From Candidatus Lloydbacteria bacterium RIFCSPHIGHO2_02_FULL_50_18 (GTDB taxonomy: Bacteria; Patescibacteriota; Minisyncoccia; Phycocordibacterales; UBA6899), in the NCBI GenBank assembly GCA_001821395.1, contig MHLM01000014.1, positions 128,001 through 192,000 of the forward strand: 64,000 nt of DNA, given 5' to 3'. The position numbers and the translations under genes are program-made. Shown here in pieces: positions 3,931 through 41,494 of the stretch. The notes under the pieces were generated by a model that saw only the letters and a program-made list of their open reading frames with translations, was not told where the DNA came from and made no database searches. Numbering within the stretch: the first letter of the stretch is position 1; each line of letters starts with the position of its first letter.

Positions 3931-4153
3931 AATTTGGGCGCACTGCATTGTCGGAAACTTACGAGGCTCATTCACCGTACTCCGAAGTACGCCTCATTTC
4001 GCTTCGCGTTTCCTTCGCGCATTGCATCCCCAATTGTTATTTCGCTCAATGTCACTTCCTCGTCGCCTTGGACTGCGACCAAAAAATTCATCGAGCGACC
4101 AATTTTTCTTAGCAGTATTCTGCTTTAGAAAAATGGAAGTACTCTCCGTGGTG
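3931..4153. repeat. intergenic repeat family A, copy 1 (left module aatttgggcgcaYtgc...cgtacNNNNgtacg hairpin...cgcaYtgcatccccaa; right module gcgaccaatttttctta...ttagaaaaatggaagtactctccgtggtg)
   Basis: It shares conserved blocks with copies at 9964-10095, 27526-27645, 31300-31470 and 36923-37007. All copies lie in the 3' intergenic regions of + strand genes. Confidence 0.6.
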
Positions 4154-29686: not shown

Positions 29687-31207
29687 TTGAGAGGTGAGTG
29701 GATGAAAGCAAACAAATTTTATATTATTAACAACAACTATCGTATGGCAACCAAGAAACCCGTGAAGACTGCTCCGAAGAAGAAGGTCGCAAAGCCCGTC
29801 AAGCCTGCCCGCGCAGGCGGGAAGGCAGTTGCAAAGCCCGCACCAAAAAAGCCTGCACGGGTAACGGCTAAGGCGCAGAAGGTGACGCTCGCGAAGCCCG
29901 CAAAAAAGGCCGGGAAGCCTGCGAAGAAAAAGAAGAAGAACACGGGAACCAAACCGGGAAGCGCAAACACGCGCAACGCAAAGAATGCCAAAGCGAAGAA
30001 GGAGCTGAAGGCGCATCCAAAACCCGAAACGGACGAGAAGCCAAAGAAGCTCACGGCCTCCGAGAAGAAGGCGCTCGCCAAGAAAGAGCAGCTCGCACCG
30101 CCCCCAAAGAAGACGATGACCAAGGAGCGCAAAGCCTTGGAGCATAAGTTGACCACCCTCATCACCCGTGGCCGCGATCGCGGTTTCATCACCTTCGACG
30201 AGATCCTGCGCGTGTTCCCGGAGATCGAGAACAATCTCGACTTCCTGGAAGAGGTCTACGATCGGATGGGCGTCATGGGCGTCGACATCCTCGAGTCGGG
30301 CGGCTTGCTTGATGTGGTGACCGAAGACGAGACTCCGCACCACGGCGCATCAAAGAAATATCTGACGACAAAGTCCTCGCCATACGACTCGACGCAGATG
30401 TATCTCCGCGAGATTGGTCAGTATCCGCTGCTTTCCGCACGCGACGAGCGCGAGCTTGCACAGCGCATTCAGGCGAGCGATCCTGAGGCAAAGAATCTCC
30501 TCGCACGCGCCAACCTTCGCCTTGTGGTCTCCGTTGCCAAGAAATACGTCGGTCGCTCACCCGACCTCACACTGCTTGACCTCATCCAGGAGGGGAATCT
30601 CGGTCTTTTCCGTGCCGTCGATAAGTTCGACTGGTCGAAGGGCTACAAGTTCTCGACCTATGCTACATGGTGGATCCGTCAGGCCATCACCCGCGCCTTG
30701 GCCGACCAGTCCCGCACCATCCGTATCCCGGTCCATATGGTGGAGACCATCGCGAAGTATAAGCAGGTCGTCCGCCGCCTGACTCAGGACCTGGGTCGCG
30801 AGCCGATGGCCGAAGAGGTCTCGACCGAAATGGGTATCGACATCGAGCGCGTCCGCATCATTGAGAACATCGACCAGGATACCGTTTCCCTCGAGAAGCC
30901 GATTGGTGATGACGAAGACAAGTCCACCCTCGGTGAATTCATCGCTGATGAGAAGATCCTTTCACCCGACGCAGAGTCTTCCCGCCGTATCCTTAGCGAT
31001 CAGGTGGGGGAGATACTTGGAGATCTCAGCCCAAAGGAGAGGAAGATTCTTGAAATGCGGCATGGGCTATTGGACGGTGTAACGCACACTCTCGAAGAAG
31101 TCGGGAAAGAGTTTGGGGTTACGCGTGAACGTATTAGACAGATCGAGGCCAAGGCCCACGAGAAGATCCGCCAGCACGCGAACATCAACAAACTGCGAAG
31201 CTACTAA
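29687..31207 (+). CDS. rpoD: RNA polymerase principal sigma factor (sigma-70 family) with Lys/Ala/Pro-rich histone-H1-like N-terminal region
   Basis: Region 2 ([27 protein letters not shown]), region 3 and region 4 ([15 protein letters not shown]...[23 protein letters not shown]). About 130 N-terminal residues are AKP/KK repeats. It is adjacent to dnaG (MMS-operon order). Confidence 0.9.
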
Positions 31208-31211
31208 GACA

Positions 31212-31293
31212 AACAACAAAAAACGGGGGTGCTAAGGTCCGACCTTAAGAATTTTAAAAGGTCGGACCTTGGAGAAACTGCACCCCCGTTTTT
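31212..31293 (+). terminator. compound terminator (outer stem aaaaaacgggggtgc...gcacccccgttttttg enclosing inner hairpin ggtccgacc...ggtcggacc)
   Basis: Nested perfect hairpins with a T-run, immediately after rpoD. Confidence 0.7.
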
Positions 31294-31299
31294 TGCTGT

Positions 31300-31470
31300 G
31301 GCTCCGCAGTTAGTTATGCCGTGCATGTCGTATCTAGGACGCGTAATTTGGGCGCATTGCTTTGTTGTCATCGGAACGAACCCCGCTCATCGTACCAGAG
31401 TACGCCTCGGGAGGTATCGTCCCTCGACGTCTCGCACTGCATCCCCAATTACGCGTCCAAAATATGACCG
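31300..31470. repeat. intergenic repeat family A, copy 4 (aatttgggcgcattgc...cgtaccagagtacg hairpin...tcgcactgcatccccaattacgcg)
   Basis: Same terminal blocks as copies 1 and 3. Confidence 0.55.
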
Positions 31471-31621
31471 TTTAAGCAAATTAAGGTTGTTAGTTGCAGG
31501 TAGGCTATACTTTTTGACAAAAGATTAACAATACATATTATTTGTAAATAAAATATGTTGTTATATATAGATATTCTGAAAATTGAGTTATATTGTTAAT
31601 ATATAAAATACAATATCCACA

Positions 31622-31650
31622 TTGACACTGGTAAATAAGGGAATATAATA
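31622..31650 (+). promoter_or_regulatory. near-consensus sigma-70 promoter TTGACA-16-TATAAT driving the mini-HTH array
   Basis: ttgaca at 31622-31627, tataat at 31644-31649, and the first gene at 31685. The surrounding 200 bp is extremely AT-rich and has a second ttgacaaaag box at 31515. Confidence 0.55.
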
Positions 31651-31684: not shown

Positions 31685-31909
31685 ATGGAAGAAGAGAATA
31701 TAAAACTTTCAGCAATAGACCGAAAACTCACTGTGATTGTTGGTTTGCTGTTTAAAATTTCAAATCAAGGGGGAAAGTCAACGCTGAAAGATCAAGTGAA
31801 AGAACTTTCAAGCCTTGGGTTGTCTGCAAATGAAATCGCTGCCACTTTGGGGAAAAAGATAACTCACATAAGAAAAGAATTAACAGGACTTAAAAAAACA
31901 AAGAAGTAA
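31685..31909 (+). CDS. mini HTH protein 1 of 7 (sigma-70 region-4/LuxR-like HTH, Lys-rich tail), 74 aa
   Basis: LTVIVGLLFKI...LSSLGLSANEIAATLGKKITHIRKELTGLKKTKK fits the HTH consensus G-h-S/T-x-x-E-I-A-x-x-L...V/I...L seen in sigma region 4.2 and LuxR. Confidence 0.6.
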   Translation: MEEENIKLSAIDRKLTVIVGLLFKISNQGGKSTLKDQVKELSSLGLSANEIAATLGKKITHIRKELTGLKKTKK

Positions 31910-31910
31910 T

Positions 31911-32126
31911 ATGGACAATCAGGATTTATTACAGACAATATCAAAAAAACTCGGTGTTCTAATTGCCCTACAGCTTCAAGAAAAATCAGAAAAGTTTTCT
32001 GTATCTGAGGGAGTGGAGTTACTTACTCGTTTTGGAATGACCCCAACTGAGATTGCAGATATTCTAAATACCTCAACAAACACCGTGAATGTTATGAGAT
32101 CTCGTCTTAAAAATAAAAAGAAATAA
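31911..32126 (+). CDS. mini HTH protein 2 of 7, 71 aa
   Basis: LGVLIALQL...LTRFGMTPTEIADILNTSTNTVNVMRSRLKNKKK. It starts 1 nt after the previous stop. Confidence 0.6.
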   Translation: MDNQDLLQTISKKLGVLIALQLQEKSEKFSVSEGVELLTRFGMTPTEIADILNTSTNTVNVMRSRLKNKKK

Positions 32127-32128
32127 GC

Positions 32129-32314
32129 ATGGAAAAAGAAATACTTGAACAAATCAAATATCAAAACAGTCAGCTAAGAGACATCTTTATCTTCTTACTT
32201 AGCAGAGAAGGGTATAACGATTCAGAAATACGAGCCATTGTCGGAAGTGTCGATAATAATAAAATTAGAAAAATAAGTGCAGGCCTCAAAAGAATTAAGA
32301 AACTTAAAAAATAG
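32129..32314 (+). CDS. mini HTH protein 3 of 7, 61 aa
   Basis: LRDIFIFLLSREGYNDSEIRAIVGSVDNNKIRKISAGLKRIKKLKK. Confidence 0.55.
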   Translation: MEKEILEQIKYQNSQLRDIFIFLLSREGYNDSEIRAIVGSVDNNKIRKISAGLKRIKKLKK

Positions 32315-32315
32315 C

Positions 32316-32486
32316 ATGATTAAGAAAAATCAAAATAATGAAAGTGATCGGACATCTGACTTGGTGATGAAATTACTTATACTTGAACTCGCTAAATTCG
32401 GTCTACCTCAAGGCGAAATAGCAAAGAAGCTTTGCGTAAACATTGTGGTTGTTAATGACTTTCTTAAAGGAATAAAACTTAAATAA
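32316..32486 (+). CDS. mini HTH protein 4 of 7, 56 aa (start reassigned to ATG 32316)
   Basis: MIKKNQNNESDRTSDLVMKLLILELAKFGLPQGEIAKKLCVNIVVVNDFLKGIKLK. It starts 1 nt after the stop of gene 3. Confidence 0.5.
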   Translation: MIKKNQNNESDRTSDLVMKLLILELAKFGLPQGEIAKKLCVNIVVVNDFLKGIKLK

Positions 32487-32487
32487 T

Positions 32488-32646
32488 ATGGCAAAAAAGA
32501 AAAGCGAGAAACTTGAACCACTAGAAGAAATTAAAAGGCTTCTTGTATTGGGGCTAGTAAATCAAGGCGTAAAAGGGAAAGATATTGCAGCTGTTCTTGA
32601 CGTTGATCCTGCAATAATTAGCCGACTTTTGTCTCCCAAAAAATAA
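32488..32646 (+). CDS. mini HTH protein 5 of 7, 52 aa (below the ORF-track cutoff)
   Basis: MAKKKSEKLEPLEEIKRLLVLGLVNQGVKGKDIAAVLDVDPAIISRLLSPKK. It starts 1 nt after the stop of gene 4. Confidence 0.5.
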   Translation: MAKKKSEKLEPLEEIKRLLVLGLVNQGVKGKDIAAVLDVDPAIISRLLSPKK

Positions 32647-32650
32647 ATTT

Positions 32651-32863
32651 ATGAATGAAAATACGGATATTACAAAACGTCTTGATGCAATTGCTTTGCT
32701 ACTTTTAAAACTACTGCCAAAGGAAACACTTGGACCCGATCAGGACAAGATACTATTTTTTAGTAGCCTCGGCTATTCAAATACTGAAATAGCAAAGTTG
32801 TTGCTCAAAACTCCAAACCAAGTTAAATCACTTCTCCACTTAGGAAAGAAGAAGAATCAATAA
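32651..32863 (+). CDS. mini HTH protein 6 of 7, 70 aa
   Basis: LDAIALLLLKLL...FFSSLGYSNTEIAKLLLKTPNQVKSLLHLGKKKNQ. Confidence 0.6.
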   Translation: MNENTDITKRLDAIALLLLKLLPKETLGPDQDKILFFSSLGYSNTEIAKLLLKTPNQVKSLLHLGKKKNQ

Positions 32864-32864
32864 T

Positions 32865-33443
32865 ATGACAGATCGACTTAATCCTAAAATAATTGTGATT
32901 CTTGAAGCCAAGTTGGGTAAAACTGCTGAACAGATAAGACCGCGATTGTCTGAGTTGCGTCGCAAACACAGCGGCTTAACGATGAATGCTGCGGCACAGA
33001 TGTACGCAATGTCTCACAACACATCTATTATGGGGAAACTTGATGTAGAAGATCGACAATCTCTAGCTACTGTTCAAGCCATTACGCAGGTGAGCGTGTC
33101 TAGTGTATCTAAGGTTGATAAGCGCACACTAAACATTAACAACTCCCCGATACACAATCTCTCATTTGGTGACCGAAACCAGGTGGGTCAAAGTGTTGTG
33201 AATATCGATAATTCCCTAGAAAAGCTATCTAAACAAATTGAAAAAAGTACAGTACTAACGGATGATGAGAAAAATGATTATAAATCCGACATAGAGACCA
33301 TCGCGAGTCAAGTTGGAAAAAGTAAACCCAACAGATCGATTATTAAAACGGCATGGGAAGGAATAAAAGCACTATCTGAATTAGAGGGTTTTGCTCAGGC
33401 TGTAGCTCACACTGGTACATTAATTCAGCACTTTATTTCATAG
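32865..33443 (+). CDS. mini HTH protein 7 of 7 with about 130-aa C-terminal extension, 192 aa
   Basis: The N-terminus KIIVILEAKLGKTAEQIRPRLSELRRK is related to the other six. The C-terminal extension is Asn/Ser/Lys-rich with no recognised motif. Confidence 0.55.
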   Translation: MTDRLNPKIIVILEAKLGKTAEQIRPRLSELRRKHSGLTMNAAAQMYAMSHNTSIMGKLDVEDRQSLATVQAITQVSVSSVSKVDKRTLNINNSPIHNLSFGDRNQVGQSVVNIDNSLEKLSKQIEKSTVLTDDEKNDYKSDIETIASQVGKSKPNRSIIKTAWEGIKALSELEGFAQAVAHTGTLIQHFIS

Positions 33444-33475
33444 CATGTAGCTCGCTTCGCTCACTAGAGGGATCA

Positions 33476-33484
33476 CCCCCCCCC
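33476..33484. repeat. homopolymeric C9 tract
   Basis: gatcacccccccccatatt lies between the HTH array and the downstream secreted-protein gene. Such tracts undergo slipped-strand length variation in many bacteria. Confidence 0.6.
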
Positions 33485-33507
33485 ATATTATTCCAATTTT
33501 TTTCTAT

Positions 33508-33547
33508 AATTACCATATAATACGCCATGGCGTATTATATGGTAATT
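33508..33547. promoter_or_regulatory. 40-bp perfect palindrome (aattaccatataatacgcc|at|ggcgtattatatggtaatt) containing TATAAT on both strands
   Basis: The reverse complement of the left 19 nt equals the right 19 nt exactly. It lies 50-110 nt upstream of the 33599/33620 gene and is a candidate operator overlapping a -10. Confidence 0.6.
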
Positions 33548-33619
33548 CGAAAACCAGTACATTCATGATTGATTTTGTGAATCTGTTGGCTGATTGCTTT
33601 GTTTACCGTAAAGTATAGT

Positions 33620-33922
33620 ATGAGTCGCATGAATAAATTTCTCTTTGGGCTTGCGGTTGTTGGGCTTTTTGGCATCGTGGCGCCTGAAACATCAGCTCAT
33701 CCGGGTAATACCGCCTCCGATGGTTGTCACTACTGTCGCACAAATTGTGCCAAGTGGGGAGAGGTAGAAAATGCAAGACACTGTCATGGAAGCAGTAGTT
33801 CTGCGGGTCGCTCAAGTAGAGCTAATGATGATGGGGGTAGTGGAGGATGGCTGTGGCCCATCGCGGGCATAGCTGCTGGAGCCGGTGTTGTATATTTTGG
33901 TGGCAAGAATAAGTCTAAATAA
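33620..33922 (+). CDS. small secreted Cys/His-rich protein with N-terminal signal peptide and C-terminal TM anchor (about 100 aa)
   Basis: MSRMNKFLFGLAVVGLFGIVAPETSA is a signal peptide. HPGNTASDGCHYCRTNCAKWGEVENARHCHG is a putative metal-binding cluster. A Gly/Ser linker precedes WLWPIAGIAAGAGVVYFGG (TM) and a KNKSK tail. The track ORF starts at a TTG at 33599; ATG 33620 is preferred. Confidence 0.6.
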   Translation: MSRMNKFLFGLAVVGLFGIVAPETSAHPGNTASDGCHYCRTNCAKWGEVENARHCHGSSSSAGRSSRANDDGGSGGWLWPIAGIAAGAGVVYFGGKNKSK

Positions 33923-34134
33923 AACGGAGACGAGCTCGCTAGGGGGGCAGACTCCTCCTTTTTCAAGCAATTATTTTGCGTATAAGGAAATTGGTGAAAA
34001 TTTTATGAAGCTGTTGCGCTTAGAGAAAACTGATAATATTAAATCAAGCTGTTATCGTGGCATGATTTAAGTTTAATAAAAGAAAACGGGATAAGCCCAC
34101 AACCTAAAACTTACTGATCGTATGGAATATAAAT

Positions 34135-34929
34135 TTGGAGGTGCTCGGGTGGCGATTGTGGTGTTATAGTAAAGACATGAATAGATTGAAGCAGGCCTTC
34201 GATACTAAAGAAAAATTATTTTGGTTGGGCTATTGGATTATCAGTCTTTCCGCTATCGTTGCATTCTTTTTTCGGGTTGTTCCGATGCAAGCGCAGCATC
34301 CCGAGAGGGCTTATGAGAATAGCGCCATTTTCGTTATTCCTTTTCTGGTTCTGTTTGTTGTATTGCGTGTGTTATCTAAATTTCGTGATTTAAACAAATT
34401 TAAACAGCGTTTGATTATTGTTTATCTTATCTGTCTTTTTGGAGCGGCAGTTTTGTTCTGGCCGTCTCGAGTGGATGATGCTCAGGTGTTACTATGGCTA
34501 CTCTTAATCTCATTTATTGCAGCCACCTTACTTGTTTTTGGATATTCACTCGTAAGAATAGAAGAATCAAAAAAATCATTTTTAATGAAATTTGTTTTAA
34601 TTTGCATTCTATTTTCCCCTGCACTTTTTGTCCCTGCCGATGTATGGATAAGTAGCGGGATAAAATTTCCGCATCTTTGCGAAACACAAACCATTAATCA
34701 TCCTGGTGTTCCGATTGACTACGTTTGTACGCCAGAGATGGGACTATGTGGACGAGGTCTACCTTCCGCCGGGGAAGGGTGGTCAGATACAAAATCCATT
34801 TGTATCTGGGATTTACAAGCTGGGTTAGGTCTCATTTTCAGTACCTTGTTCAGGTTTTTTTACTCATCCTTGATCGCAATCGTAATTACCATAAAAACGG
34901 GGAAAAGTGGAGATAAGTCCTCGACCTAA
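34135..34929 (+). CDS. hypothetical polytopic membrane protein (about 250 aa)
   Basis: Six or more hydrophobic helices; AT-rich codon usage like the upstream island. Confidence 0.55.
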   Translation: MEVLGWRLWCYSKDMNRLKQAFDTKEKLFWLGYWIISLSAIVAFFFRVVPMQAQHPERAYENSAIFVIPFLVLFVVLRVLSKFRDLNKFKQRLIIVYLICLFGAAVLFWPSRVDDAQVLLWLLLISFIAATLLVFGYSLVRIEESKKSFLMKFVLICILFSPALFVPADVWISSGIKFPHLCETQTINHPGVPIDYVCTPEMGLCGRGLPSAGEGWSDTKSICIWDLQAGLGLIFSTLFRFFYSSLIAIVITIKTGKSGDKSST

Positions 34930-34956: not shown

Positions 34957-35022
34957 TTGGAAGTACTCTTTGTGGTGATTGATTTCTGAAACGCGTGGTC
35001 AAATTTGCAAAGTCCTGATGGG
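34957..35022 (+). repeat. intergenic repeat family B, copy 1 (ggaagtactctttgtggtg-attgatttc-...tggtcaaatttgcaaagtcctgatggg) followed by a terminator
   Basis: Related copies at 35700-35744 and 37405-37468. The gaagtactctYYgtggt block also occurs at 4136-4153, 36990-37007 and 38860-38878. Confidence 0.6.
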
Positions 35023-35071: not shown

Positions 35072-35425
35072 TTACCGAGCCGAGGACTGTATTTTTTCTA
35101 CTTCCTCGGCGAGTTTTTGTGCGAATGTGCGCAATGCTTCGATTTCTGCCCCATCGTTAACACCAACCATGTAGACCTCGCCGCCCCAGAAATGGTTCTT
35201 TACGCGAACCTCAGTGTAGACAGTGTCCCCCTCGATCGGTTCATGTGACAATGACTCGACTGCAAAATGCATATGTCGATAAGGTGAACATACGCCAAGC
35301 ACGAATGCGGGTTTTCCGTCCGCTAAGGTTCTCTTGATGACCGCTTTGTCGCCAGCAATTGCCTTGATGGCCTCGACGATATTGCGACCCATCACGCTCT
35401 TCATCTGTACAAGATCAGATCCCAT
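35072..35425 (-). CDS. hypothetical protein (117 aa)
   Basis: Clean ORF ending at the bidirectional terminator; no motif recognised. Confidence 0.55.
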   Translation of the reverse strand: MGSDLVQMKSVMGRNIVEAIKAIAGDKAVIKRTLADGKPAFVLGVCSPYRHMHFAVESLSHEPIEGDTVYTEVRVKNHFWGGEVYMVGVNDGAEIEALRTFAQKLAEEVEKIQSSAR

Positions 35426-35555
35426 AAATACCTCTTTAAATACAAAACTAACTCACATAATACAAGTTAAATTGTAAATGTCAAACAACATGAAAATGAG
35501 GTAAGCATGATAGAAAACGGGGATAAGCAAACGACCCCAGGATGGATTGGACGCC

Positions 35556-35699
35556 TTATCCGTTGATGATTTCTCCGCCATTCGGATGAAGTACTTGTCC
35601 TGTCATGAACGAAGAATCCTCTGACGCGAGAAATACGAATGATGGAGCGATTTCGCTTGGCTGTGCTGCGCGTTTCAAGATAGAATTTAAGTAAGTCCC
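35556..35699 (-). pseudogene. C-terminal fragment of a short-chain dehydrogenase/reductase (SDR), 5'-truncated at repeat family B copy 2
   Basis: The minus-strand translation ...GTYLNSILKRAAQPSEIAPSFVFLASEDSSFMTGQVLHPNGGEIING* matches the SDR C-terminus (G.PEEIA..V.FLASD.AS.ITGQ.L.V.GG). The frame hits a stop inside the repeat tggtcaaatttgc at about 35720. Confidence 0.6.
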
Positions 35700-35744
35700 A
35701 TTGATTCTTGATTCGTGTGGTCAAATTTGCAAAGTCCTGATGGG
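35700..35744 (+). repeat. intergenic repeat family B, copy 2 (ttgattcttgattcgtg-tggtcaaatttgcaaagtcctgatggg), followed by hairpin gtgccgcacattactgtgcggcgg at 35762-35786
   Basis: The 27-nt core is identical to copy 1. Confidence 0.6.
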
Positions 35745-37007: not shown

Positions 37008-37032
37008 AAATAATTCCTTCCTAATTCTATTC

Positions 37033-37076
37033 TCTTATTCGCGCGAATAGGCGAATAGATTACAGAGTGTTATGAT
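37033..37076 (+). promoter_or_regulatory. putative ArsR operator/promoter: palindrome attcgcgcgaat, direct repeat gcgaatag x2, and extended -10 TGtTATGAT
   Basis: tcttattcgcgcgaataggcgaataga, then tgttatgat at 37068-37076, 10 nt before the arsR-family ATG. Confidence 0.5.
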
Positions 37077-37085
37077 GGCAATATC

Positions 37086-37346
37086 ATGAAAGAGATCGAG
37101 AAACAGATGAGGGCGCTCGCGAATGGCCGACGACTGGCCATTCTCAAGTATCTGAAAAAAATCAAGGAGGCGAACGTGGGGGAGATTTCGGAGGAGATCA
37201 AGCTTTCATTCAAGGCAACATCCAAGCACCTGGGTATCTTGTATGCGGTGGGCATAGTAGAGAAAGATCAACTCGATCTCACGATAAATTATCGGCTGGC
37301 AAAGGACCCTCATGTTGCGGTGAGACAAATCCTTTTTATTCTCTAA
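37086..37346 (+). CDS. ArsR/SmtB-family transcriptional regulator (86 aa)
   Basis: LANGRRLAILKYL...ANVGEISEEIKLSFKATSKHLGILYAVGIV is the winged-HTH ArsR signature. Confidence 0.75.
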   Translation: MKEIEKQMRALANGRRLAILKYLKKIKEANVGEISEEIKLSFKATSKHLGILYAVGIVEKDQLDLTINYRLAKDPHVAVRQILFIL

Positions 37347-41155: not shown

Positions 41156-41494
41156 TCCTTCTTTATGTTGAGTTCAATTTGAAGAGCTAACCGTTAGCAC
41201 AATAATACAATAAACATAATTTGTCAAAATTTTCTCAATGCGATGAGATACGCAATGGAGTACTCGGTTTGAGTGCAATTTGTTCAAGCAAAACAAACAG
41301 TCATTTAAAAGCTGTCGCTGCTCCGACCGATACTCAGCCTTATGAAATAGTATAAACTATACTTTTGATGTAAAATGAAAATGTTATTTTAGAACAAGAC
41401 ACATAATCGGAATTATGTGTCTCGCGGTTGTCTCCATGCTAGCGGATGAATGATAAAGGCAAAAGTGAAATTAAAACAATAAAAATAAAGAAAT

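Follow-up and report, generated by a model that had tools for sequence, protein, structure and literature searches.

Does a run of nine cytosines followed by a long perfect palindrome act as a switch for the small secreted protein encoded just downstream? The question arises in a 64,000-nt stretch of a Candidatus Lloydbacteria (Parcubacteria) chromosome (contig MHLM01000014.1, positions 128,001 to 192,000; hereafter the window). Here, just downstream of dnaG-rpoD and within a low-GC stretch, lie a C9 tract (33476-33484, + strand), a 40-bp perfect palindrome carrying TATAAT on both strands (33508-33547) and the gene for a 97-aa, C-terminally anchored protein (33629-33922, + strand). The initial annotation of this DNA, which had noted all three, took the palindrome for a candidate operator overlapping a -10 box, possibly recognised by the adjacent mini-helix-turn-helix (mini-HTH) proteins, and the C9 tract for a candidate phase-variation switch. 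The observation and the description of the protein stand; the switch model is not supported, and the locus is of little importance as a regulatory switch, since the evidence speaks against one. We tentatively interpret the stretch instead as the junction of two independent transcription units, an explanation that, taken as a whole, is credible although still short of probable. The left unit would be a low-GC operon of the defence-island type, comprising six mini-HTH genes and a gene for a 192-aa protein, that has lost its terminal Ymh/HEPN gene. The right unit would be a stand-alone gene for the small secreted, C-terminally anchored protein, transcribed from its own TTGCTT-N16-TAGTAT promoter into a leaderless mRNA. 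The palindrome between them most likely belongs to the lineage-specific, hairpin-forming elements that come and go in the intergenic spacers of Parcubacteria. Any role it has would probably be structural: as an RNA hairpin it would seal the truncated operon at its 3' end, protecting that end, and keep read-through from reaching the small gene.

The small gene has a probable promoter of its own at 33594-33621 (+ strand), in which a -35 hexamer TTGCTT (33594-33599) and a -10 hexamer TAGTAT (33616-33621) are separated by N16 and followed, after 7 nt, by the ATG at 33629. In the closest homologues, L082 (61% identical) and L083 (59%), which are found in unrelated contexts, the only shared upstream block is TTGC(T/G)T-N16-TAGTAT, 6-7 nt from the ATG. 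Across 27 homologous loci of the candidate phyla radiation (CPR), 15 -10-like hexamers end 5-9 nt before the ATG, compared with 2-7 in each other 5-nt bin, and a Shine-Dalgarno-like motif is present at 1 of the 27, as against 16 of 44 loci in other phyla. The window's gene, with no GGAG-type motif before its ATG, combines the two marks of a leaderless gene, a -10 box 6-8 nt before the ATG and no Shine-Dalgarno sequence. The conserved -10 box 7 nt before the ATG therefore implies a leaderless or near-leaderless mRNA, probably starting at the ATG or one base before it. An in-frame ATG at 33620, which had been proposed as the start, is less likely than 33629, because homologues begin MKK or MNK. 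The TATA(G/A)T-N6-ATG layout is also found at the downstream gene for a 250-aa multi-pass membrane protein (34177-34929, + strand; TATAGT-N6-ATG, 34165-34179) and at recJ and HIT in L084, a locus from another genome to which we return below.

On the 3' side of the small gene, the terminator scan lists a terminator-like hairpin with a T run (33942-33963, + strand). With its own promoter and this hairpin after it, the small gene is thus a self-contained unit. Neighbour clustering at 72 loci found no conserved neighbour of the small gene, and the downstream membrane protein gene is not a conserved partner. The comparative evidence for leaderless mRNAs, with a -10 box 6-7 nt before the ATG, in Parcubacteria members of this family and in neighbouring genes may help the calling of starts and promoters in uncultured genomes.

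The palindrome lies outside this promoter. Its 20-nt arms, AATTACCATATAATACGCCA and TGGCGTATTATATGGTAATT, are 100% complementary and directly abut, making it the longest perfect palindrome in the window; a second copy of the half-site with at most 3 mismatches is found neither in the window nor in 100 shuffles. It starts 65 nt past the stop codon of the operon and ends at 33547, so that, measured from the likely start of the small gene, it spans about -120 to -81, with its centre some 100 bp upstream. An operator would be expected to overlap the -35/-10 region or the start; the palindrome ends short of the promoter at 33594-33621, itself a comparative assignment. TATAAT occurs at 33516-33521 on the + strand and at 33534-33539 on the - strand (ATTATA on the + strand), with an extra + strand copy at 33505-33510. 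None of the TATAAT boxes in the palindrome has an acceptable -35, and the only pair that a promoter scan finds inside it is TTACCA/TATTAT, at 9/12. A palindrome with arms longer than 14 nt is present in the 300 nt upstream at 0 of 79 loci homologous to the small gene. Because the palindrome is absent upstream of these 79 homologues, and because the gene lacks a conserved neighbour at the 72 loci, the palindrome is not tied to the small gene. It is probably not the operator at this gene's -10 that the initial annotation had supposed.

As RNA, the palindrome folds into a hairpin of -23.3 kcal/mol (z = -7.3). A T7 run on its 5' side (33497-33503, + strand) can form an imperfect duplex with the GAAAA that comes just after the palindrome, extending the hairpin, and a second, imperfect hairpin (33554-33589, + strand) is present directly upstream of the -35 in both the minimum-free-energy and the centroid folds.

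The sequence of the palindrome is found elsewhere exactly once. When metagenome contigs were scanned with its central 26-mer, one other place emerged, L084 (identical to L116 and L117), from the Hainich aquifer, where the 30-bp core CCATATAATACGCCATGGCGTATTATATGG (33513-33542 in the window) is exact and lies between divergent recJ and HIT genes, within flanks unrelated to those of the window (1517-1546 in L116). The HIT protein of L084 is 84% identical to one in Candidatus Vogelbacteria. We compared orthologous recJ-HIT spacers in related genomes, whose HIT proteins are 84%, 80% and 78% identical. In L118-L120 the spacer contains a different 47-nt perfect hairpin (2430-2476 in L118), in L121 a different 21-nt hairpin with A-rich flanks (about 2451-2471), and in L122 (1364-1500) only a 10-bp palindrome. 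At the same spacer, four related Parcubacteria thus have either a perfect palindrome of 30, 47 or 21 nt, the three being unrelated, or only one of 10 bp: the symmetry recurs, the sequence changes. Perfect palindromes with arms of 17-22 nt are terminator-type hairpins in related genomes (L115, L118 and L121), and from these comparisons long perfect palindromes appear to be a common, fast-changing feature of Parcubacteria spacers. Because symmetry recurs but sequence differs at recJ-HIT, a structural hairpin or a transient inserted element fits better than a conserved operator.

These results also bear on whether the palindrome could be the binding site of a dimeric or tetrameric regulator that acts at a distance, as a roadblock, or on a distal promoter through the TATAAT at 33516-33521. 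The perfect dyad symmetry, the TATAAT boxes on both strands and the HTH genes that adjoin the palindrome are in keeping with such a site, as is the exact 30-bp identity in the divergent recJ/HIT promoter region, which would be expected of a long sequence-specific site. Yet its position relative to the likely starts is inconsistent (about -100 in the window; about -53 and -127 in L084), and it is kept neither upstream of the small-gene homologues nor in the orthologous recJ-HIT spacers, where the palindromes are unrelated. The suggestion that the mini-HTH proteins recognise it gains nothing from the relatives, whose mini-HTH cassettes have no similar site nearby, or from the promoter of the window's own cassette, which likewise lacks one; there is no HTH gene near the L084 core, and no regulator gene is common to the two loci. 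Forty perfect base pairs, moreover, exceed what an operator needs, and a search of 84 kb of this genome, a part of the whole, found no second copy. We consider a regulator site unlikely.

The structural hairpin that we favour has its own difficulties, and the following points weigh against it. There is no U tract 3' of the stem on either strand (the + strand continues CGAAAACC and the - strand ATAGAAAAAAA), and the site is absent from the terminator scan list. Of the two elements of an intrinsic terminator, the stable stem-loop is present and the U tract directly 3' of it is not; the palindrome hairpin is therefore not a canonical intrinsic terminator. In L084 the core lies between divergent genes, where the need for a terminator is not obvious. 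The chance of an exact 30-32-bp match in two otherwise unrelated loci is about 1e-3, a rough estimate that takes spacer-less perfect palindromes at about 1 per 175 kb, as in the sequence examined, and assumes a total size for the collection. A purely structural element leaves this exact core match unexplained, which hints at sequence-specific recognition or mobility. Furthermore, the promoter and leaderless start assigned to the small gene derive entirely from comparison with other genomes. Because a U tract is missing and a simple hairpin does not explain the exact reuse of 30 bp in two genomes, both an operator and a mobile element keep some weight.

In the second of these, the palindrome, perhaps together with C9 and T7, would be a non-functional scar or a small mobile palindromic element, resembling a repetitive extragenic palindromic (REP) sequence or a miniature inverted-repeat transposable element (MITE) or produced by hairpin repair, and left when the Ymh gene was replaced by a segment with the small gene and the membrane protein gene. 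It sits at the exact breakpoint of a conserved cassette, as described below; the same core is present in another aquifer genome, where locus and flanks alike are unrelated; the palindromes of recJ-HIT spacers vary in presence and sequence; and perfect symmetry suggests a recent origin or self-templated repair. However, the 84 kb of this genome contain a single copy, the metagenome collection contains one other exact copy, and the viral, phage and plasmid collections contain none. Specifically, the 26-mer scan of viral contigs gave 0 matches, the degenerate arm pattern retrieved from them only 17 unrelated AT-rich palindromes, and BLAST of the palindrome region against the phage and plasmid collections returned chance-level matches only. 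Nor do the flanks show a target-site duplication or the neighbourhood a transposase or integrase, so that in the part of the genome examined the palindrome has neither the multiple copies nor the target-site duplication or transposase of REP and MITE elements. An origin as a scar or mobile element is possible, although we regard it as rather unlikely. Separately, a single 20-mer match in a viral contig was dismissed as a coincidence, as it falls inside a 602-aa coding region.

The palindrome can also be read as a compact bidirectional promoter, with TATAAT-N5-ATG running outward on both strands from the central CCATGG and mimicking a leaderless start signal. Real genes here do use TATA(A/G)T-N6/7-ATG, and in L084 the core is placed between divergent genes. 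But neither side has a -35, the real genes use a spacing longer than 5 nt, the open reading frames that it would start (13 and 31 aa in the window; 27 and 15 aa in L084) show no conservation past the palindrome, and antisense transcription into the 192-aa gene would result. A promoter of this kind strikes us as highly improbable. Two further candidates were rejected. The layout of 11-6-11 around CCATGG recalls a dif/Xer site, but cumulative GC skew rises steadily across the window without a switch, and a fully symmetric centre has no directionality. A protelomerase target, considered for a resemblance to N15 telO, is contradicted by ordinary flanks of differing chromosomal sequence in a contig of more than 140 kb and by the lack of such an enzyme nearby.

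The C9 tract is the sole run of at least 7 C or G in the window. The expected number of such runs is 0.07 per window, and at least one is present in 6 of 100 dinucleotide-preserving shuffles, so its rarity is mildly unusual and not compelling. From the tract it is 110 nt downstream to the -35 and 144 nt to the ATG. Since the tract falls in neither the promoter spacer nor the reading frame, it is not obvious how altering its length could switch the small gene. Other assemblies of this population agree with the window: the Rifle aquifer assembly GCA_001818945.1 (contig MHLI01000006.1) and several re-assemblies match it at 100% wherever they overlap. L001, the sole other assembly read across the tract, also has C9, and L103-L106 are exact matches in an overlap that excludes the tract. 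A scan of metagenome contigs with the flanks of the tract and a variable gap gave 0 matches, in a collection that apparently does not contain this population. Among the 79 homologous loci, none has a C or G tract of at least 7 within 300 nt upstream.

Slipped-strand phase variation, the function first proposed for the tract, could draw on its being the only such run in 64 kb and on a Nitrospirales homologue, L053, that has C14 directly after its start codon and again in a second gene 1.3 kb away, so that homopolymer control of the family may exist elsewhere. Set against this are the position of the window's tract far above the conserved -35 and the ATG, its unchanged length in L001 and its absence from the 79 homologues, and we give a phase switch here very little credence. 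C9 is most likely an incidental homopolymer at a rearrangement junction.

The L053 locus (Nitrospirales metagenome-assembled genome OY843588.1) has features of its own. A 5' cassette of about 45 nt is common to the small-gene homologue and a lipoprotein-like gene 1.3 kb upstream (2641-2680 and 3971-4010), and consists of a Shine-Dalgarno sequence, ATGAATTT(A/G)TTTG and C14. The homologue opens ATGAATTTATTTG-C14 and is in frame from the cassette ATG; the second gene is out of frame. This pair looks like homopolymer contingency loci, in an arrangement that differs from the window's and with tract lengths that are uncertain in a long-read assembly.

The evidence for a rearrangement junction comes from the upstream operon, which opens with six tandem paralogous mini-HTH genes (52-74 aa; 31685-32863, + strand), identified from their open reading frames and a shared HTH segment. 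Their products are 27-35% identical in pairwise comparison and give sub-threshold or borderline matches to Sigma70_r4_2, GerE and HTH_23. The last gene of the operon here encodes the 192-aa protein (32865-33443, + strand), whose family shows 66-89% identity among the best 120 of 182 clusters and whose C-terminal half matches the PADLOC candidate PDC-M14B (E 1e-9). In every relative examined (L107-L115; 192-aa protein 77-80% identical), the cassette has four mini-HTH genes, compared with six in the window, then the 192-aa gene, and then a gene for a 233-aa Ymh protein (PF09509, HEPN) whose ATG follows the 192-aa stop by 1 nt (TAAtATG, then the 233-aa open reading frame). In relatives the cassette is often beside restriction-modification genes, and Ymh is a HEPN family tied to restriction-modification and abortive-infection systems (Anantharaman et al. 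2013, PMC3710099).

In the window, the site at which the Ymh gene of relatives begins (33444-33475) contains only TAGcATGTAG and unrelated sequence. No Ymh remnant was found at the junction by tblastn, and local alignment performed no better than on shuffles. C9 and the palindrome thus occupy the exact breakpoint where the Ymh gene is absent. GC content also differs among the neighbouring segments: 34.5% in the mini-HTH cassette, 49.7% in the small gene and 54.7% in dnaG-rpoD. The cassette looks like an undescribed defence or abortive-infection-like system, here without its HEPN gene; its mini-HTH, 192-aa and Ymh/HEPN genes are conserved as a unit beside restriction-modification genes, and the copy in the window is effector-less. 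Upstream of the operon, a consensus TTGACA-N16-TATAAT is located near 31622-31650, in the operon's AT-rich promoter region. Between that region and the rpoD terminator hairpin (31215-31295) are about 200 nt of non-coding sequence of moderate GC content (31300-31500) with no Rfam match.

The product of the right unit belongs to a large family. The gene, from the ATG at 33629 to the stop at 33922, encodes a protein identical to database protein P0001. A signal peptide (33629-33697) is followed by a His/Cys module from H24 to G54 (33698-33790), a Gly/Ser/Asp linker (33791-33847), a hydrophobic helix from W74 to G92 (33848-33904) and a basic tail, KNKSK. The signal-peptide-like N terminus and the hydrophobic C-terminal helix, seen in both the sequence and an AlphaFold2 model, agree with the original description of a secreted, C-terminally anchored protein. 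That description was right about the four His (H24, H34, H51 and H53) of the cluster HPGNTASDGCHYCRTNCAKWGEVENARHCHG; its three Cys are in fact four (C33, C36, C40 and C52). The AlphaFold2 model, built without ligands, has helices at residues 3-16 and 76-95 and a mean predicted local distance difference test score (pLDDT) of 68, rising to 78-84 at residues 31-50 in the central module, which is modelled as a small hairpin and a short helix. The C terminus, with its short motif, hydrophobic helix and basic tail, resembles a sorting signal, and the downstream 250-aa membrane protein has a Cys-rich C-terminal part and a weak match to Exosortase_EpsH (E 0.015); the pairing of the two genes is not kept in other genomes.

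Searches of the small protein against Pfam, PHROGs and PADLOC returned no matches, nor did a family-profile sequence search of the PDB, and Foldseek against the PDB found none with E below 7. A word-indexed search recovered 203 relatives, and a profile search of 1.84 billion representatives recovered 1,851 at E <= 1e-3 and 1,305 at E <= 1e-10. Homologous loci are found in many Patescibacteria and also in Vibrio, Motilimonas, Arenicellales, Nitrospinia, Nitrospirales, Binatia, Bdellovibrionales and others. The module A/HPGxTAxDGCHYCRTNCxxWG-x5-RHCH (the slash marking the predicted cleavage site) is almost invariant in 120 sequences, in all of which H24, P25, G26, D31, G32, C33, H34, C36, R37, T38, C40, W43, G44, R50, H51, C52 and H53 are conserved, and it always comes directly after a signal-peptide-like segment. 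What follows the module varies: in some members it is a Gly/Ser or Pro/Thr linker, a C-terminal hydrophobic helix and a basic tail, as in the window's protein; in others it is PG_binding (PF01471), PF12946 or a topoisomerase-type zinc ribbon.

The nearest described domain is NCBIfam NF033223 (YHYH_alt), whose 25-position model aligns to residues 22-53 at 16.8 bits, below the curated cut-off of 30; relatives score 19.9, 24.9, 29.2 and 29.8 bits. Its short secreted module with the pattern H...D...H...HxH is present in the small protein as H24, D31, H34, H51 and H53. Judged by alignment, the family is a Cys-bearing and insertion-bearing relative of the uncharacterised YHYH_alt domain. For the larger namesake, the 'enigmatic YHYH domain', a zinc site of three His and one Asp was predicted by Iyer et al. 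(PMC7824862), and the invariant H24, D31, H34, H51 and H53 fit that predicted site. Metal binding by the small protein is plausible. Outside the cytoplasm, the four Cys would more probably be joined in two disulfides; DsbA and DsbB are encoded in the same genome, along with a protein that has a weak DsbD_TM match. Signal-peptide cleavage would occur between A23 and H24, leaving an N-terminal His, as we infer from the invariant A-H-P-G and the usual signal-peptidase rules. With about 1,850 clusters, an almost invariant 30-residue module and no Pfam model, and with members across Patescibacteria, Vibrio, Nitrospirota and others, the family offers an easy target for biochemistry, namely of metal content and disulfides.

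Two bolder readings can be put side by side. First, the palindrome core could be one of a class of perfect-palindrome elements, so far undescribed, that are sequence-specific and spread horizontally in Parcubacteria; if so, such elements would come to lie ahead of leaderless promoters and where rearrangements have joined sequences, and a dedicated enzyme or regulator could recognise them. Second, and independently of the first, the small protein could be the prototype for a metal site that is widespread outside the cytoplasm, made of H1, exposed by cleavage, with D8, H11, H28 and H30, and stapled by two disulfides. We regard these readings as quite improbable.

Other features of the window lie apart from this junction. 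Inside rpoD, at 30731, the ENA scaffold L001 has an N gap (position 91-100), and breaks in two further assemblies fall at about 30.6-30.8 kb. Assembly seems to be disrupted there either by the Lys/Ala-rich N-terminal extension that RpoD carries or by strain variation at the locus. The copies of a 45-nt direct repeat (34978-35022 and 35700-35744), which are 89% identical, bracket an open reading frame of 117 aa (35072-35425, - strand) and an apparent C-terminal fragment of a short-chain dehydrogenase (35467-35724, - strand). An ArsR-family regulator gene (37086-37346) is preceded by a 34-nt near-perfect palindrome (37026-37059; TCTATTCTCTTATTCGCGCGAATAGGCGAATAGA), which is likely an autoregulatory operator. 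Some 73 nt before a gene for a 1146-aa protein, in the spacer between divergent genes, an AT-rich perfect hairpin, AGACACATAAT-CGGA-ATTATGTGTCT, occupies 41397-41422. No Rfam family matches the window at gathering thresholds, with chance-level matches only at E <= 1 in 33300-34200, and a scan of the window for tRNA and tmRNA genes found none.

How does the locus compare with systems that are already known? In homopolymer contingency loci of the type found in Neisseria, Haemophilus and Campylobacter, the tract is in the open reading frame or in the spacer between -35 and -10. The window shares with them a G/C homopolymer of 9 near the gene for a surface protein and differs in that the tract is far upstream of both the reading frame and the promoter spacer, and has the same length in L001, the one other assembly read across it. 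The palindrome resembles the Rho-independent, often bidirectional terminator hairpins of Parcubacteria in being a long perfect palindrome in the spacer after an operon, with a 20-nt arm within the 17-22 nt range of L115, L118 and L121. Unlike them, it has an AT-rich stem with a short GC core, it has no A tract before and T tract after but the reverse order, T7 upstream and GAAAA downstream, and its identical core lies elsewhere between divergent genes. With the palindromic operators of dimeric repressors (CIRCE/HrcA, or the 12-2-12 sites of ArsR type), it shares dyad symmetry, an intergenic location and the occurrence of a long site, unchanged, in two genomes; unlike these, it does not overlap the conserved promoter, is absent from homologous and orthologous promoters, is single-copy and has no cognate regulator identified.

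For the two transcription units themselves, the comparisons are closer. Relatives of the window's operon resemble the Ymh HEPN cassettes (PMC3710099) in that they end with Ymh/HEPN and adjoin restriction-modification genes, whereas the window has no HEPN gene and carries the small-gene segment in that place. The small protein, for its part, has the short secreted module of YHYH_alt with the same ligand-like spacing, H-x-G-x-T-x-x-D-G-x-H ... x-H-x-H. It is distinguished by an 8-residue insertion, by four invariant Cys (CHYCRTNC ... RHCH in place of YHYH) and by a module that sits straight after the signal peptide, so that the His would be residue 1 of the mature protein.

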